The notes under the pieces were generated by a model, which was not told the DNA's origin, did no database searches, and saw nothing but the letters and a program-made list of their open reading frames with translations. The position numbers were made by a program, and so were the translations under genes. 64,000 nt of DNA from an uncultured Alphaproteobacteria bacterium (GTDB lineage Bacteria > Pseudomonadota > Alphaproteobacteria > Rhizobiales > Beijerinckiaceae), in NCBI GenBank assembly GCA_963829505.1, contig CAWHIL010000003.1:1297184-1361183 (forward strand), written 5' to 3'. Each line of letters opens with the position of its first letter. The stretch's first letter is position 1. This document shows positions 28,271 through 52,533 of this stretch, in pieces.

Positions 28271-29680
28271 TCAGTAAAGCCCGGTGAATTCGTAGAAGCC
28301 GATGACGACGAACACCGCGGCCGTCTTCAGGACGGTGACGGCGAAGATGTCCTTGTAGGACTCGCGGTGGGTGAGGCCGGTGACGGCGAGCAGCGTGATG
28401 ACGGCGCCGTTGTGCGGCAGCGTGTCCATGCCGCCCGACGCCATCGCGGCGACCCGGTGCAGCGCTTCCATCGGAATGCCGACGGCGTTGGCGGCCTCGA
28501 TGAAGTCCTTCGACATCGCAGCGAGCGCAATCGACATGCCGCCCGAGGCCGAGCCGGTGATGCCGGCGAGCGAAGTGACGGTGACCGCCTCGCGCACGAG
28601 GACGTTCGGGATGCCGCCGAGCGCGTCGCGAATGGCGAGGAAGCCGGGCAGCGACGCGATGACGCCGCCGAAGCCATATTCGGTCGCCGTGTTCATCGCC
28701 GCCAGCAGCGCGCCCGCGACCGCGAGCTTGCTGCCGTCCGCAAACGTCCGCGACACGGGGCGCCAGGCGAGCAGGAAGACGAGGACGATGCCCGTCAGCA
28801 GCGCGCCCTCGACCGCCCAGACGGCGCGGATCGGCGGGACCGGCGTCGCGATCGCATGGTCCATGGCGAGTTTCAGGTCGTAATTCGCGCCATAGGTCCA
28901 GTCGATCAGGCCGGTGAACACGCCGGGAAAGCCGCCGAGCAGGATGTTGAGGCCGAAGACGACGATAAGCGGCAGAAAGGCGATGAAGGGCGAGGGCAGA
29001 TGGGTCGTGTCGATCGGCTGCGGCTCGTTGATGTGGCCTTCGCCGTAGCCTTCGCCTCGCGCGCGGGCGCGCCGCTTCTGCCATTCGAGATAGGTCATCC
29101 CGCAAACGAGGATGAAGATCGCGCCGACGATGCCGAGGATCGGCGCGGCGCCGGTCGTCGTCTTGAAATAGGTGGTCGGGATGATGTTCTGGATCTGCGG
29201 CGTGAAGGGCAGCGAGTCCATGGTGAAGGAGAAGGCGCCGAGCGCGATCGTGCCCGGAATGAGCCGCTTCGGAATGTCGCCGGCGCGGAAGAGTTCGCTG
29301 GCGAAGGGGTAGGCTGCGAAGACGACGACGAACAGCGACACGCCGCCGTAGGTCAGGACCGCGCAGACGAGCACGATCGCGAGCATCGCCTGGTCCTTGC
29401 CGACGGCGCGGATGATGGTGGCGACGATCGACTTGGCGAAGCCGGAAAGCTCGATCACCTTGCCGAAGACGGCGCCGAGCAGAAAGACCGGGAAGTAGAG
29501 CTGCGCGAAGCCGACCATCTTCACCATGAAGAGGTTGGTGAAGGCGGCGGGCACCGCATGCGGGTCGGTCAGGAAGACCGCGCCCATGGCGGCGATCGGC
29601 GCGAACAGGATGACGCTGAAGCCGCGATAGGCGACGAACATCAGGAAACAGAGCGCCGCCAGCGCAATCAGAAGATCCAT
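28271..29680 (-). CDS. GntP-family permease
   Basis: MDLLIALAAL start, LTYGGVSLFVVVF, TSLAGITGSASGG, LPHNGAVITLL. Confidence 0.88.
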   Translation of the reverse strand: MDLLIALAALCFLMFVAYRGFSVILFAPIAAMGAVFLTDPHAVPAAFTNLFMVKMVGFAQLYFPVFLLGAVFGKVIELSGFAKSIVATIIRAVGKDQAMLAIVLVCAVLTYGGVSLFVVVFAAYPFASELFRAGDIPKRLIPGTIALGAFSFTMDSLPFTPQIQNIIPTTYFKTTTGAAPILGIVGAIFILVCGMTYLEWQKRRARARGEGYGEGHINEPQPIDTTHLPSPFIAFLPLIVVFGLNILLGGFPGVFTGLIDWTYGANYDLKLAMDHAIATPVPPIRAVWAVEGALLTGIVLVFLLAWRPVSRTFADGSKLAVAGALLAAMNTATEYGFGGVIASLPGFLAIRDALGGIPNVLVREAVTVTSLAGITGSASGGMSIALAAMSKDFIEAANAVGIPMEALHRVAAMASGGMDTLPHNGAVITLLAVTGLTHRESYKDIFAVTVLKTAAVFVVIGFYEFTGLY

Positions 29681-31137: not shown

Positions 31138-31149
31138 GGGGGTCTCCTT

Positions 31150-31248
31150 GGCGAGTGGCGAGTGGCGAGGCGAATGGCGAATGGCGAATGGAAGCGCGGC
31201 GTATCGCTCCCTACTCGCTACTCCCTACTCCCTACTCGCTACTCGCCC
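31150..31248. repeat. Inverted heptamer tandem arrays forming a gene-less hairpin
   Basis: (GGCGAGT/GGCGAAT)n at 31150-31191 facing (CTACTCG/CTACTCC)n at 31209-31248. Confidence 0.85.
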
Positions 31249-45899: not shown

Positions 45900-47051
45900 T
45901 CAGGCTTCCGGCTTCTTGTCCGAACGTGCGGGCTGGGCTTGATCCTTGAGCCCCACGCCCCCCTTGGCGAGAGTGCTCGCCTGCGCCACCCAGCGTTCGC
46001 GATGGATCCGACCGGGAAAGGCGAGATACGTCCCGACCCAGCGGATCTCGGCAAGCGTCCACGCGGCGATCTGATCGAAATGAAAGACGCCGAGCGCGTG
46101 CAGGTGCTTCTCGTTGACCGGGCCGACGCCCTTGATGCGCTTGAGGTCGTCGGGCGCGCCGGTGCGCGGGGCGGGCAGAGCCGCGGGCCGCTCGCCGACG
46201 GCGTTGGCCTTCTGCTCGGGGGTCGCGTCCGCGGGCAATTTGGCGAGCGCGGCCTTGACGTGGGCCTCCTCGGCCTCCGCGTGCGCATGCGCGGCCGCGT
46301 CGTCGGCCGAGACGGGCTTCGTGTCGCTCGCCGAAGGGGGGGCGGGCGGCGAAGCTGCGCCAGCCGACGGCGCGGCCTCACCCGTCTTTGAAGCAGGCGC
46401 CGTCGCGTCGTTGGCCGGCGCAGGCGCGCGGACCGCGCCCTTGCCGTCGGCGCCGTAGAGCGACGTCAGCGTGGTCAGGCCGCCGACCGGCTCGGACGAG
46501 ACGCGGCCGATCTGCGAGCCGACCTTCACGGGACGCCCCGCCGCAAGATCGTCGAGCAGTTTCGCGAAATTCTCGGGCGTCAGGTCCTCGTAATAATCGT
46601 CGTTGATCTGCACCATCGGCGCGTTGCAGCAGGCGCCGAGGCACTCGACCTCGCTCCACGAGAAGAGCCCGTCGGCGCTGACGTGATCGGCCTCGCCGAC
46701 GCGCTTGCGCAGCACCGCCCTGATGTCGTCGGCGCCCCGGAGCGCGCATGGCGTCGTGCCGCAAAGCTGCACGTAATGGCGCCCGACCGGCTCGAGGTTG
46801 AACATCGTGTAGAAGGTCGCGACTTCGAGCACGCGGATCTTCGGCATATCGAGCATCTCGGCGACCTTCTCGATCGCAGGCCGCGACAGCCAGTAGCTGT
46901 TCTGCTTCTGCGCCCGCCAGAGGAGCGCGATCACCGCGGAGGCCTGGCGGCCCTGCGGATATTTGGCGATCTCCTTCTCTGCCCAGGCCTTGTTCTCGGG
47001 CGTGAAATCGAAGCTCGGCGGTTGCTTCTCGGCAAGTCGGCGGACGGACAT
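45900..47051 (-). CDS. nuoE: NADH-quinone oxidoreductase subunit E with C-terminal HhH-like extension
   Basis: VATFYTMF, CGTTPC, ECLGACCNAPM; Pro/Ala linker then DDLKRIKGVGP. Confidence 0.96.
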   Translation of the reverse strand: MSVRRLAEKQPPSFDFTPENKAWAEKEIAKYPQGRQASAVIALLWRAQKQNSYWLSRPAIEKVAEMLDMPKIRVLEVATFYTMFNLEPVGRHYVQLCGTTPCALRGADDIRAVLRKRVGEADHVSADGLFSWSEVECLGACCNAPMVQINDDYYEDLTPENFAKLLDDLAAGRPVKVGSQIGRVSSEPVGGLTTLTSLYGADGKGAVRAPAPANDATAPASKTGEAAPSAGAASPPAPPSASDTKPVSADDAAAHAHAEAEEAHVKAALAKLPADATPEQKANAVGERPAALPAPRTGAPDDLKRIKGVGPVNEKHLHALGVFHFDQIAAWTLAEIRWVGTYLAFPGRIHRERWVAQASTLAKGGVGLKDQAQPARSDKKPEA

Positions 47052-47092
47052 GGGTCAGATGATCCCGGTCGCGGGTTCGGGGAAACGACGCG

Positions 47093-47293
47093 TCATCGCC
47101 CGCCTCCCCGAACGTCGCTGAGGACGAAATAGAGGGCGACCATCGCGATCCCGATGACGACCCCGATGTCGGATTGCGGCTGAACGAGCGGCTCGCCGGA
47201 AGCGAGCCGCATTCCGCCGACGAGCACCACGAACGACGCGGCCCCCGAGACGATGAGCCCGGCCCGGTTGCGGAGCGACTCGAGGATCGTCAC
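47093..47293 (-). CDS. Small two-TM hypothetical membrane protein between nuoD and nuoE
   Basis: GTGA overlap with the nuoD stop; 66 aa with two hydrophobic helices. Confidence 0.6.
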
Positions 47294-48480
47294 CGGTCGA
47301 CCTCTCCGAAGACGATGTCGATCGAGCCGAGGATGGCGCTGACGTCGGCGAGCATGTGCTTGCGGCAGAGGAAATCCATAGCCTGCAGATGGGCGAAGCC
47401 CGGGGCGCGCAGTTTGACGCGGTAGGGCTTGTTCGTCCCGTCCGAGACGAGATAGACGCCGAACTCGCCCTTCGGCGCCTCGACCGCGGCGTAGACCTCG
47501 CCGGCCGGCACCCGGTAGCCTTCGGTGTAGAGCTTGAAGTGATGGATCAGCGCCTCCATCGAGCTCTTCATCTCGGCCCGTCGGGGCGGTACCACCTTGC
47601 CGTCGTCGCTGGCGACGGGACCCTCGCCGCCGCGCGATCTGAGCTTTTCGCAGGCCTGCTTCATGATCCGCGCCGACTGGCGCATCTCGGCCATGCGGAT
47701 CACGTAGCGGTCGTAGCAGTCGCCGTGCTTGCCGACCGGGATCTCGAACTCCATCTCCTCGTAGCACTCGTAAGGCTGCGCCTTGCGCAGGTCCCACGCC
47801 GCGCCCGAGCCGCGCACCATGACGCCCGAGAAGCCCCACGCCCAGGCGTCCTCGAGCTTCACGACGCCGATGTCGACGTTGCGCTGCTTGAAGATGCGGT
47901 TGCCGGTGAGCAAAGTCTCGAGGTCGTCGCAGACTTTCTCGAACGGGTCGCAGAAGGCGTAGATATCGTCGATGAGCTGCGGCGGCAGATCCTGATGGAC
48001 GCCGCCGGGGCGGAAGTAGGCCGAATGCATGCGCGACCCGCTGGCGCGCTCGTAGAACACCATCAGCTTCTCGCGCTCCTCGAAGCCCCAGAGCGGCGGC
48101 GTCAGCGCGCCGACGTCCATGGCCTGCGTGGTGACGTTGAGAAGATGCGAGAGCAGCCGGCCGATCTCGCAGAAGAGCACCCGGATGAGCTGCGCCCGGC
48201 GCGGCACTTCGATGGCGAGGAGCCGCTCGACGGCGAGCGCCCAAGCGTGCTCCTGGTTCATCGGCGCGACGTAATCGAGCCGGTCGAGATAGGGCACGTT
48301 CTGAAGGTAGGTGCGCGCCTCCATCAGCTTTTCGGTGCCGCGATGCAGGAGGCCGATGTGCGGATCGACGCGCTCGACGACCTCGCCGTCGAGCTCGAGC
48401 ACCAGTCTCAGGACGCCGTGGGCCGCCGGATGCTGAGGTCCGAAGTTGATCGAGAAGTTGCGCAGGTTCTGGTCGGTCAT
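47290..48480 (-). CDS. nuoD: NADH-quinone oxidoreductase subunit D
   Basis: [39 protein letters not shown]. Confidence 0.98.
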
Positions 48481-48523
48481 TGAAGGTCGGTCATTGAAGG
48501 GCCCCGCGGAACGCCAAAGACGG

Positions 48524-48561
48524 TGAATGGCGAATGGCGAATGGCGAGTGGCGAATAGGGG
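48524..48561. repeat. Heptamer tandem array (left arm)
   Basis: TGAATGG CGAATGG CGAATGG CGAGTGG CGAATAG GGG. Confidence 0.88.
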
Positions 48562-48568
48562 CGGCGCA

Positions 48569-48967
48569 TCACTCGACCTCTTTGTCCGATCCGCTGCGAC
48601 GCGCTTGAAGCGAGCGGATCAGGCGACGCAGCATTTTTCCGATGGCTTCGCATCGATCGAGAAGAGGCTCGACCCTTCCTGGTTCCGTCAGTCCGACCCT
48701 CGCCGCCAGCAACAAATGAGTCTCCAACTCTTTCAACGATCCTTGCAACACTCGCAAGAACTGAACAAACGATCCTGTTGCTTCTCGGCCATGACCTTCA
48801 GCGACATTCGCCGCAATTGAAGCCGCAGCCCTGCGGATCTGCGCCGTCATGCCGTACACCTCCTCCCGCGGAAAGCTCCTGGTCAGAACGTAGCAGTCTG
48901 CCGCCACGGTCATTGCCTCTTGCCACACCCGCAGGTCTCGATAGGACCTGATTCCCTCGCCGTCCAG
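48569..48967 (-). CDS. Four-helix-bundle protein (23S rRNA IVS-protein-like family)
   Basis: [14 protein letters not shown]...[30 protein letters not shown]...[10 protein letters not shown]. An in-frame TAA just upstream leaves CTG 48967 or GTG 48928 as start. Confidence 0.9.
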
Positions 48968-48973
48968 ACCTTA

Positions 48974-49004
48974 CCCCACTCGCTATTCGCTATTCGCCAT
49001 TCGC
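48974..49004. repeat. Heptamer tandem array (right arm, inverted relative to the left)
   Basis: CC CCACTCG CTATTCG CTATTCG CCATTCG C. Confidence 0.88.
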
Positions 49005-49014
49005 GTCTCTCAAC

Positions 49015-49623
49015 CTACTGCGTACTGCCTCCCGACGCCTTCTCGTCGCCCGGCAGCGGCGGACCCTCCCAGGGGCTCAGGAAGTCGAACTGACGGAATT
49101 CTTGGCTCAGGCGCACCTTGTCGTAGCGCACGCGCTTCTCCTGGTCGTCGTAGCGCACCTCGACGAACCCGGTCATCGGGAAGTCCTTGCGAAGCGGATG
49201 GCCCTCGAAGCCATAGTCGGTGAGGATGCGACGCAGGTCCGGATGGCCGGCGAAGACGACGCCGAAGAGGTCGTAGGTCTCACGCTCGTACCATTCGGCG
49301 CCCGGCCAGACGGAGACCGCGCTCTCGACGGGCGTCGCCTCGTCGGTCGCCAACTTGACGCGAATCCTGCGGTTCAGCTTCGGCGACAGCAAATGATAGA
49401 CCACGTCGAACCGCTTCTCCCGCTCGGGATAGTCGGCTCCGCAGATGTCGATGATGGCGATGAACTGTCCGGCCGGATCGTCGCGCAGAAACTTGAGCAC
49501 CTGGATGTTGCAGTCGGCGTCCACGGTCAGCGTCAGCTCGCCCGCCGCGAAGGTCTGATCGAGGACGGCGCCCGGAAAGGCCGCAGCCGTCTTGTCGCCG
49601 ATCGTTTTGAGAAGCTCATCCAT
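49015..49623 (-). CDS. nuoC: NADH-quinone oxidoreductase subunit C
   Basis: [30 protein letters not shown]. Confidence 0.97.
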
Positions 49624-49656
49624 TGCGCGGCTCTTTTCCGCCTTCGATCCGAAGGG

Positions 49657-50232
49657 CTAGCGTTCGATCGTGCCGGTCCGGCGGATCTTCTTCTGCAGGA
49701 GCAGCACGCCGTACAGCAGCGCTTCCGCCGTCGGCGGGCACCCGGGCACGTAGATGTCGACCGGCACGACCCGGTCGCAGCCGCGCACGACCGAATAGGA
49801 ATAGTGGTAGTAGCCGCCGCCGTTGGCGCACGAGCCCATCGAGATGACGTAGCGCGGCTCCGGCATCTGGTCGTAGACCTTGCGCAAGGCGGGCGCCATC
49901 TTGTTGGTCAGCGTGCCGGCGACGATCATCACGTCCGACTGGCGCGGGCTGCCGCGCGGGGCGAAGCCGAAGCGCTCGACGTCGTAGCGCGGCATCGAAA
50001 GCTGCATCATCTCGACCGCGCAGCAGGCAAGCCCGAACGTCATCCACATGAGCGATCCGGTGCGCGCCCAATGAATCAGCTCGTCCGTCGTCGTGACGAG
50101 GAAGCCCTTGTCGGCCAGTTCGTCGCTAATCTGGCCGAAATAGGCGCTGTCCTCGCCGAGCGGCCTGCCGGTCCTCGGATCGACGAGGCCGGTCGCGGGC
50201 GGCGCGACGAGCGGACCGGAGCTCAATCCCAT
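49657..50232 (-). CDS. nuoB: NADH-quinone oxidoreductase subunit B
   Basis: [27 protein letters not shown]. Confidence 0.98.
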
Positions 50233-50588
50233 TCGAGGGCTCCCTTGTTCCATTCGTAGACGAACCCGACGGTCAAGACCGCGAGGAAGAGGATCATCGA
50301 CCAGAAGCCGAGCGCGCCGAGATCATGGAAGACGATCGCCCATGGGAACAGAAACGCCACCTCGAGGTCGAAGATGATGAACAGGAGCGACACCAGGTAG
50401 AAGCGTGCGTCGAAGCGCATGCGGGCGTCGTCGAACGGGTCGAAGCCGCATTCGTAGGGCGACAGCTTCTCCGAATCCGGCGCCTTGAACGCGAGCAGGA
50501 AGGGCGCGACCAGCAGACCCGAGCCGATCAGCGCGGCGATCACGACGAATACGACAAGCGGCAGGTAGTCGGATATGAGGCTCGGCAT
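50223..50588 (-). CDS. nuoA: NADH-quinone oxidoreductase subunit A
   Basis: [31 protein letters not shown]. Confidence 0.97.
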
Positions 50589-50802: not shown

Positions 50803-50879
<77 letters not shown>

Positions 50880-51646: not shown

Positions 51647-51722
51647 TGGTGGGCGGTGACGGGCTCGAACCGCCGGCCCTCTCGGTGTAAGCGAGATGCT
51701 CTACCAACTGAGCTAACCGCCC
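51647..51722 (-). tRNA. tRNA-Val(TAC)
   Basis: GGGCGGTTAGCTCAGTTGGTAGAGCATCTCGCTTACACCGAGAGGGCCGGCGGTTCGAGCCCGTCACCGCCCACCA. Confidence 0.97.
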
Positions 51723-51937: not shown

Positions 51938-52231
51938 CTATTTCTTGGCCGACTTCGACTTGTTGAGGGCGGCCCGGAGCGCGGTGCTCGGCTTGAAGCG
52001 CGCATTCTTGGACGCGGCGATCTTGATCTCTTTTCCGGTCGCCGGATTGCGGCCCTTGCCGGCGGCGCGCTCGCGCACCGAGAAGGTTCCGAAGCCGACG
52101 AGGCGCACTTCCTCGCCTTTTCTCAGCGTCTTTTCGATGCCTTCGAGCACGGCCTCGAGCGCCTTGGCCGCCGAAACCTTGGTCAGTTCCGCTTCCGTCG
52201 CAATGTGATCGACGAGTTCGAGCTTATTCAT
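51938..52231 (-). CDS. hupB: DNA-binding protein HU
   Basis: MNKLELVDHIA...VRLVGFGTFSVRERAAGKGRNPATG...FKPS. Confidence 0.95.
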   Translation of the reverse strand: MNKLELVDHIATEAELTKVSAAKALEAVLEGIEKTLRKGEEVRLVGFGTFSVRERAAGKGRNPATGKEIKIAASKNARFKPSTALRAALNKSKSAKK

Positions 52232-52533
52232 CCCATTCTCCGTTTCAAACGGCCTTGTCGCCTTGGCCCTTCCTACCGCAGCGTTCAATGGTTCGCCGCG
52301 CCCACCTTCGTCCGTCGCGTCCGAACCAAGTCCGTTTAAGGACGCTCCTTGCCTCGAATCGACGGCCGAGTTCGGCCCCATTGCTCATGTTTCGATGAGC
52401 CCGCGCAAGGCTTTGCCGGCGCTGGAAGCCAAAAAAGATGGGATTTTCGGGCAAAAAATGCAGGAGACGCCGCAAAAAGCGCCGCGAATCCGTCAGGGAC
52501 TCGCGGCGCTTCCTTGGCAAAGACAGCGTGAAA

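Follow-up and report, generated by a model that had tools for sequence, protein, structure and literature searches.

A four-helix-bundle gene within inverted heptamer arrays at the nuoC-nuoD junction of an alphaproteobacterium: a candidate IVS-type insertion cassette

This study concerns a small gene between nuoC and nuoD in a stretch of 64,000 nucleotides of DNA, here called the window, from an uncultured alphaproteobacterium of the Beijerinckiaceae (contig CAWHIL010000003.1, positions 1,297,184 to 1,361,183, forward strand). The gene encodes a four-helix-bundle protein of the family PF05635 and is enclosed by two inverted arrays of a 7-nt unit. Genes of this family are accompanied by such arrays in many phyla, in archaea and on phage contigs. 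Orthologous sites show gain, loss and replacement of the cassette as well as its decay to hairpins without a gene and to relics of one arm. We give an even chance to the reading that the region is one copy of a compact and widespread insertion cassette of the intervening sequence (IVS) type, the protein of which works with its own inverted heptamer arrays. In the best-supported reading, the sites of such cassettes are permissive transcribed places, namely intercistronic junctions, tolerant positions within open reading frames (ORFs) and rRNA helices. With more doubt than confidence, we extend this to the proposal that PF05635 genes and their own inverted arrays may form an unrecognised class of elements in bacteria, archaea and phage contigs. 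The IVS of 23S rRNA would be its first special case and the heptamer repeats of cyanobacteria (the short tandemly repeated repetitive sequences, STRR), Xanthomonas and Geobacter its gene-less derivatives, and the protein, probably pentameric, would recognise about five heptamers and thereby drive the upkeep or spread of the arrays.

A preliminary description of this DNA, made from its letters alone, had placed the gene between nuoC and nuoD within inverted arrays of GCGAATG-type units. This arrangement was borne out by the arm coordinates, by a repeat search and by Tandem Repeats Finder (TRF), which called both arms as period-7 arrays. The features concerned are as follows, with positions in the window:

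48569-48958, minus strand: PF05635/TIGR02436 four-helix-bundle gene, 129 codons as translated, stop codon TGA at 48569-48571
48974-49004, minus strand: 5' arm in the mRNA sense, G-rich array of the units GCGAATG, GCGAATA, GCGAATA and GCGAGTG, followed by GGG
48523-48560, minus strand: 3' arm in the mRNA sense, C-rich array of CCCTATTCGCC followed by ACTCGCC, ATTCGCC, ATTCGCC and ATTCACC, complementary to the 5' arm
48471-48522, minus strand: spacer from the 3' arm to nuoD, holding a 14-bp tandem duplication of the nuoD start
49015-49623, minus strand: nuoC, the upstream host gene, of the Complex1_30kDa family in orthologous loci
47290-48480, minus strand: nuoD, the downstream host gene, of the Complex1_49kDa family in orthologous loci
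31149-31246, strand unassigned: gene-less hairpin with arms at 31149-31191 (GCGAGTG/GCGAATG units) and 31207-31246 (complement of GCGAGTA/GGGAGTA units)

The 5' arm begins 10 nt past the nuoC stop codon, and the cassette including both arrays has a size of about 480-520 bp. In the repeat search, the arms were complementary over 31 nt at 84%, or over 27 nt at 93% in a shifted register, in agreement with the imperfect stem of about 31 bp around the ORF that had been suggested; in the 521-nt cassette RNA folded with ViennaRNA, the arms are predicted to pair in the minimum free energy and the centroid structures alike. The pattern GCGARTRGCGARTR has 14 matches in the window versus 0.63 expected from shuffles. 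Thirteen of these fall into two loci, the nuo cassette and positions 31149-31246, while the remaining one is a lone one-mismatch match at 28628. The second locus, taken earlier for an empty version of the cassette at 31150, is indeed a gene-less hairpin with a loop of about 15 nt and a predicted free energy of -60 kcal/mol (z = -4.7), and its neighbours are two minus-strand genes, for RNase J and for a glyoxalase-family protein.

The assignment of the ORF between nuoC and nuoD rests on matches to PF05635 (E 9.5e-33; 113 bits, cut-off 33.8) and to the NCBIfam models TIGR02436, 'four helix bundle protein' (110.9 bits, cut-off 24), and NF008911 (170.6 bits, cut-off 137), as well as on a match of residues 4-120 to the crystallised protein XCC0516 (PDB 2GSC; E 2.3e-20). 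All family-invariant residues are kept, and the motif GxxRxxxSxxxNxxE is intact in the alignment (G36, R43, S47, N51, E54). It is the only PF05635 gene in the window. Profile matches of the protein were restricted to PF05635 and Avd-like families, with no transposase domain among them, and no family of the PADLOC defence-system models matched it at E <= 0.01. A promoter/terminator scan of the window cassette revealed no promoter or terminator signal of its own, and an Rfam search of the cassette gave no match. Also, the cassette is not inserted into 23S rRNA, as its flanks are nuoC and nuoD and Rfam gave no rRNA match in 47000-50500.

For the family as a whole, 80 PF05635 loci were analyzed among the matches listed in a genome scan seeded on internal protein motifs, which makes them a sample and not a census. 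They span cyanobacteria, Chloroflexi, Acidobacteria, Alpha-, Beta- and Gammaproteobacteria, Bacteroidota, Planctomycetes, Gemmatimonadetes and other phyla as well as two archaea. The enrichment of flanking inverted 7-mer arrays at four-helix-bundle genes, which the preliminary description had proposed to look for across taxa, is clear in this sample. The best inverted repeat between the 150-nt gene flanks had a median score of 18 versus 8 in displaced controls, and its score exceeded the control 95th percentile at 66 of 79 loci. TRF called 151 period-7 arrays in the 23.8 kb adjoining the genes versus 129 in the other 398 kb; arrays stand on both sides of 61 of the 80 genes, on one side of 14 and on neither side of 5, and they accompany 21 of 24 copies on viral contigs. 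When complementary adjacent array pairs with the G-rich arm first were considered, 46 enclosed a PF05635 gene and one enclosed another ORF, the rest being short-loop empty hairpins. Gene-less forms beside gene-bearing ones, likewise anticipated, were found as hairpins of the same unit within the same genomes, and 45 of 116 distant arrays are built of the unit of the local cassette. A crude call of neighbour orientation gave 40 loci co-oriented on both sides, 21 divergent upstream, 11 convergent downstream and 2 opposed on both sides. The gene of the crystallised protein, XCC0516, carries an array of four GGGAATC units over its start codon directly after bccP, and this 4-unit repeat overlapping the XCC0516 start just after bccP is contained without comment in a supplementary table of Rehm et al. 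2015 (PMC4692102).

Units vary from lineage to lineage (for example GCGAATA, GGTGAAT, GGCAGTC, GGGAGTA, GGGAACA, CAGGTGT, GTCAGTA and AGGATTG), and the distance between units tracks that between proteins (Mantel r = 0.25, p <= 0.0005), also when only between-taxon pairs, i.e. pairs from different phyla, are compared (r = 0.20, p <= 0.0005). Such co-divergence fits a protein tied to its own arrays, which it may bind. Array length varies little (median 4.4 units or 31 nt; interquartile range 3.9-5.0 units). The proteins are basic, with a median isoelectric point of 9.0, and they are under purifying selection: the ratio of nonsynonymous to synonymous substitution rates (dN/dS) of the window gene versus its same-site orthologues is 0.08-0.10 at a dS of around 2, and all usable pairs together have a median of 0.20. 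Internal stops are present in three PF05635 copies. On both sides of intact orthologues, the arrays are kept despite saturated synonymous sites.

Some further loci deserve mention. The only G-first pair around a gene outside PF05635 (L020, 89-949; L numbers denote the loci analyzed) encloses an ORF of 217 codons that starts with MSYRDF like PF05635 proteins, then diverges and has no Pfam match; it could stem from the replacement or fusion of a cassette. The 22 plasmid records with a homologue were all cyanobacterial. In Nostoc sp. PCC 7120, an identical four-helix-bundle protein (WP_010994075.1) is encoded on plasmid gamma (L171, 2504-2854) and on plasmid alpha (L172), each time next to transposase genes. 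A C-rich period-7 array (CTTCTGC/CCTCTGC) lies downstream of the copy in L171, for which no clear matching upstream arm was seen.

The history of the insertion site was followed in 80 nuoC-nuoD junctions from a metagenome scan seeded on the nuoC of the window. In all contigs that encode the two closest named homologues, P0007 and P0009, and reach the flanking genes, the gene lies at the nuoC-nuoD junction and has an array to either side. Among the junctions of relatives, there are full cassettes with GCGAATA-type arms. Other full junction cassettes have GGCAGTA-type or AGTCGGC-type arms, and their proteins are only 50-62% identical to that of the window. At insert-free junctions, the stop codon of nuoC adjoins the nuoD start or overlaps it (L092 with 83% nuoC identity and a gap of 2 nt, L096, L115, L116 and L124). 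Between these states there are a truncated gene (L127), an empty hairpin (L130) and single-arm relics (L159, L167, L168, L101 and L108). The junction of L147 (about 1204-1454) has a gene-less GCGAAT-type hairpin with another G/C-rich palindromic element, CCCTCCCCCC...GGGGGGAGGG, in its loop, which suggests that hairpin loops also take up other small elements. Since L105 with a full GCGAGTA-type cassette and L101 with a 27-nt junction and an AGTCGGC-type relic share 94.7% identity in the first 300 nt of nuoD, turnover of the cassette is fast relative to the divergence of the host genes. In the window itself, the last codons of nuoC (GGCAGTA CGCAGTA GG, 49014-49029) resemble two GGCAGTA-type units and could, on weak evidence, be a relic of an earlier occupancy by this other cassette type. 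Empty/filled site polymorphism, another of the signs proposed beforehand, was thereby found at the orthologous nuoC-nuoD junction and also at one Rhizobium site, where a 492-nt cassette faces 72 nt in RNA contigs of a related strain; this difference is a strain polymorphism at the DNA level. In other alphaproteobacteria, the junction contains unrelated small genes and no heptamer arrays (L113, L128, L131, L135, L137, L138, L145, L148, L150, L151, L156, L160 and L166), among them an FlK-type fluoroacetyl-CoA thioesterase-like gene and a GFA-family gene. The site is therefore permissive and a general hot spot for extra genes.

Ten of the 80 family loci have the cassette inside a long host ORF that is open throughout (L011, L016, L020, L028, L034, L037, L049, L057, L071 and L076). 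Relative to the PF05635 frame, that of the host is +2 in every case, and it runs on for hundreds of codons to either side, so that about 350 nt are apparently coding in two frames. Host genes or sites of at least three types are represented; those checked with Pfam (L028, L071 and L076) encode an Eco57I/MmeI-type restriction-modification methylase or an N6_N4 DNA methylase. Hairpins without a gene in these host ORFs are likewise in frame and stop-free and add inserts of about 26 amino acids, one of which reads ...GSGELGVGSREEENAVPTPHSPLPTPS... As the +2 frame is open in only 10 of the other 70 loci, the openness within ORFs reflects selection for read-through, and the respective transcripts are evidently translated through and not cut or spliced.

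How such a cassette might work can be outlined as follows. The basic and probably pentameric protein would bind its own heptamer arrays as DNA or RNA, whereby about five units per array would match five subunits, and this binding may let the protein maintain or propagate the arrays. In untranslated contexts such as rRNA and intercistronic spacers, the arms would form a stem of at least 27 bp, which RNase III could cut as in the IVS of Coxiella and Leptospira; the cut would free the insert and leave the host transcript unharmed. Inside ORFs, a cassette would survive only where it leaves the host frame open. New copies might arise by recombination between arrays or by template switching at hairpins.

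Several results weigh against this favoured reading. Neither a mobility mechanism nor transposition chemistry nor a catalytic motif was found for the cassette, and the comparison of filled with insert-free junctions gave no target-site duplication; the perfect 14-bp duplication of the nuoD start in the window (TTCAATGACCGACC twice, 48471-48498, minus strand), present as a single copy in the orthologue L005, is tandem and one-sided and hence no flanking target-site duplication. We infer both the binding of the arrays by the protein and the cutting of the nuo transcript by RNase III, the latter by analogy. Because the copies inside ORFs are read through, RNA excision is not obligatory for the element. 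A search of sequencing runs found none with this organism; the best run shared 0.19 of the sampled words and was DNA. Neither of two sequence tests gave support for selection on a particular RNA stem: arm mismatches comprised 91 G-U pairs in the sense RNA versus 68 A-C, which is not significant (p = 0.08), and the order of unit variants was not mirrored between the arms beyond expectation (mean z 0.26, p 0.14-0.28). The arms are complementary because both are arrays of one unit, and the pattern matches what one would expect if the unit and not the helix is conserved. Also, unit numbers were identical in 10 contigs from different samples despite nearby single-nucleotide polymorphisms (SNPs), and their 3' arrays were invariant too, although these contigs had been picked for identical proteins, which is a bias against variants of the 5' array; Rehm et al. 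2015 (PMC4692102) report between-species conservation for 83% of the Xanthomonas repeats. Stable arrays suit a mobile element and a resident host element alike. Finally, cassettes riding in horizontally transferred restriction-modification genes may supply part of the cross-phylum signal.

Two simpler rules for the arrays were considered and rejected. The G-rich arm is the 5' one in 86 of 89 loci. As an inverted repeat is G-first when read from either strand, this count defines the type of hairpin and no orientation relative to the gene. A supply of stops and starts in all frames by the period of 7 was also discarded, as stops occurred in 52% of the 5'-arm units versus 44% of shuffled ones (p = 0.11) and ATG, GTG and TTG were not enriched; the tail and stop codon of nuoC do come from array-like sequence in some loci.

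The stability of the arrays, both within populations and between Xanthomonas species, speaks for a host regulon, which is a serious rival even though we consider it unlikely. Here, PF05635 would be a sequence-specific RNA- or DNA-binding regulator with the hairpins at operon junctions as its operators and with its own gene kept in a hairpin for autoregulation, acting on mRNA stability, intercistronic translation or local DNA structure. The position of hairpins between co-oriented genes near stop and start codons, which was also described by Rehm et al. 2015, is in line with this, as are the strong purifying selection, the retention of the gene in the essential nuo operon over a dS of about 2 and the divergence of the unit together with the protein, as in a pair of operator and regulator. 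The authors of the Geobacter metallireducens genome independently named its elements of four heptamers, 49 copies of four GGGACCG units between and within genes, putative 'global regulatory' elements (PMC2700814). Conserved regulatory sites, however, would not be expected to be empty, filled or occupied by another cassette type among close relatives, and cassettes and hairpins also occur in ORFs, 23S rRNA and phage contigs; decayed copies with internal stops and the lack of a known regulatory phenotype also speak against regulation. A regulatory role is nevertheless compatible with a selfish origin.

Less probable still is that the arrays are generic, slippage-born structure repeats, i.e. G-quadruplexes or hairpins that are terminator-like, mRNA-stabilising or similar to repetitive extragenic palindromic (REP) sequences, and that PF05635 genes merely gather in their permissive or recombination-prone loops. 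Rehm et al. 2015 (PMC4692102) found 186 arrays of GGGAATC and 70 inverted pairs in Xanthomonas, and GGGGAYT arrays in Nostoc, with a preference for four units and for positions between co-oriented ORFs; they proposed G-quadruplexes, which oligonucleotides of GGGAATC and GGGGAYT did form, and hundreds of arrays per genome far exceed the number of genes. Empty hairpins are common, the loop of L147 holds another palindromic element, and the mirror-order test gave no sign of stem-specific selection, all of which would suit generic repeats. On the other hand, units with a GGG tract occur at only 27 of 64 loci, array length is equal for units with and without GGG, and the window units GCGAATG, GCGAATA and GCGAGTG lack GGG, the tract of at least three G per unit that marks the repeats of Rehm et al. 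2015, and GCGAATG cannot form a G-quadruplex. With GGG absent from the majority of units and array length no different in its presence, the G-quadruplex was rejected as a common explanation. Moreover, PF05635 genes are near-exclusive within G-first pairs (46 versus 1), the unit follows the protein and not the host taxon, and arrays persist around intact orthologues at synonymous saturation. Very improbable is a phase-variation switch, in which the array overlapping the ORF start, with a unit that is not a multiple of 3, would toggle the gene as units are added or lost, the window copy being 'off': the in-array start codon of orthologues and the one extra heptamer plus 1-nt loss by which the window acquired two stops relative to the P0001 type would suit it, but unit number was constant in the 10 contigs mentioned (chosen with the bias stated there) despite nearby SNPs, the 3' array, the inverted symmetry and the empty hairpins are left unexplained, 4-5 units are below typical contingency tracts, and Rehm et al. 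2015 judged it unlikely too. Explanations by slippage and G-quadruplexes only and by phase variation fit the data poorly.

The start codon of the window copy requires separate consideration. The Pfam match and the conserved SYRDL begin upstream of the first canonical start, GTG at 48926-48928, and no canonical start codon was found upstream of SYRDL in the ORF 48569-48958. The closest homologues are proteins of Roseiarcus metagenome-assembled genomes with 72-84% identity and the N-termini MANSEWG, MASGEWG and MANGERG, which are the array itself in translation (ATG GCG AAT AGC GAG TGG), as shown by the DNA of L001 and L005. In the window, the in-array ATG (48998-49000) is in frame and appears to be the ancestral start. 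Because of the extra heptamer and the 1-nt loss relative to the P0001 type, two in-frame stops fall between this ATG and SYRDL, TAG at 48983-48985 within the 5' arm and TAA at 48971-48973 just 3' of it. The window copy therefore has either a non-canonical start, a recently lost start or a misassembled repeat, and its expression is uncertain. At the other end of the cassette, the duplication of the nuoD start yields a mini-ORF of 5 codons (MTDLQ*), whose TGA overlaps the nuoD ATG.

Two further nuo genes frame the junction:

49657-50253, minus strand: nuoB
45900-47051, minus strand: nuoE

Between nuoD and nuoE, a 66-codon ORF (47096-47293, minus strand) with a GTG start overlapping the nuoD stop encodes an apparently hydrophobic product, and Roseiarcus loci also have an ORF for 65-70 amino acids without a Pfam match at this position. 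NuoE (gene at 45900-47051) has 383 amino acids, of which only residues 25-169 form the 2Fe-2S thioredoxin-like domain; a long linker rich in Ala and Pro and then another C-terminal region follow. Just upstream of nuoA, tRNA-Asp and tRNA-Val genes and an apparent HU-like gene are located on the same strand (50803-50879, 51647-51722 and 51938-52381). The HU-like call rests on the translation; in locus L005, a PF00216 HU gene is located upstream of nuoA.

When the cassette is compared with known systems, the ORF-bearing IVS of 23S rRNA in Leptospira and Coxiella burnetii (Ralph & McClelland 1993; Warrier et al. 2016, PMC4990558) have the loop protein family PF05635 ('S23p') in common with it. The likeness extends to the size of about 430-520 nt, the ORF within a stem of about 28-31 bp of terminal inverted repeats, the dependence on host transcription, the sporadic distribution and the signs of horizontal transfer. 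In Coxiella, the S23p ORF is located in the loop of a 28-bp stem that RNase III cuts in the middle, and the IVS RNA is short-lived and its protein was not detected in vivo (PMC4990558). In contrast, the window copy resides in an mRNA operon between nuoC and nuoD and not in helix 25 or 45 of 23S rRNA. The arms of the window copy are explicit tandem heptamer arrays, and those of the IVS may be so too. Cutting by RNase III, demonstrated for the 23S IVS, would apply to the window cassette by analogy, and related copies within ORFs are translated through instead of being excised. PF05635 genes inserted in cas operons have also been reported (Zhang et al. 2013).

The heptameric intergenic repeats of cyanobacteria (STRR), Xanthomonas, Nostoc and Geobacter likewise consist of tandem 7-nt units, about four in number, between co-oriented ORFs near stops and starts, often as convergent inverted pairs and also within genes. 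In the respective papers they are treated as G-quadruplex-forming or regulatory DNA and are unconnected to PF05635; the explanation by G-quadruplexes does not carry over to the window unit GCGAATG, which has no G-tract. In the literature searched, no paper linking PF05635, TIGR02436 or S23p proteins with heptamer arrays was found. Heptamer arrays and IVS proteins were published separately, and the link between them appears to be new.

The REP sequences and their hairpin-forming doublets (REPINs) with REP-associated tyrosine transposases (RAYTs) similarly combine many gene-less palindromic repeats with a repeat-flanked protein gene, and the repeat type is lineage-specific and tied to the gene. 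Many gene-less copies together with presence/absence polymorphism, as in REPs and MITEs (miniature inverted-repeat transposable elements), were found here as well. RAYTs differ in being Y1 (HUH) transposases of known chemistry, whereas PF05635 proteins are small four-helix bundles for which we know of no catalytic activity, and a REP is a single imperfect palindrome, whereas the arms of the cassette are tandem heptamers. Rickettsia palindromic elements (RPEs), reportedly described by Ogata and colleagues in 2000, and other in-frame MITE-like inserts are likewise stop-free palindromic inserts translated within the host protein, as at the related loci within ORFs. They are gene-less and have no known associated protein, whereas the cassette can embed a whole second gene with the host frame at +2.

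The preliminary description regarded the function of the protein family as unknown, which holds in general with the qualification that a distant homologue, Avd (bAvd, PF22296), is a reverse-transcriptase cofactor in diversity-generating retroelements. Avd, a basic four-helix bundle that forms pentamers, is a nucleic-acid binder, and in the RNA on which it acts the upstream and downstream segments work together. Avd-type profiles match the window protein weakly (PF22296, E 0.006; NF033474, E 1e-4), and its score of 22.6 bits for the Avd equivalog is below the cut-off of 80. In contrast to Avd loci, neither a reverse transcriptase nor a template or variable repeat adjoins the window gene, whose immediate neighbours are nuoC and nuoD.

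For genome annotation, it matters that start codons of PF05635 genes are often located within an array, that upstream genes take their stop codons from an array and that some restriction-modification genes hold a whole second gene in an overlapping frame. The four helix bundle/S23/IVS family has thousands of members and a crystal structure since 2006, and we know of no role for it outside Avd. If the reading proposed here is true, it would provide a common explanation for the role of this family, and it would also explain the origin of the ORF-bearing IVS of 23S rRNA and of the abundant tandem heptamer repeats of cyanobacteria, Xanthomonas and Geobacter. The link between the protein and the arrays makes these questions testable with existing reagents.

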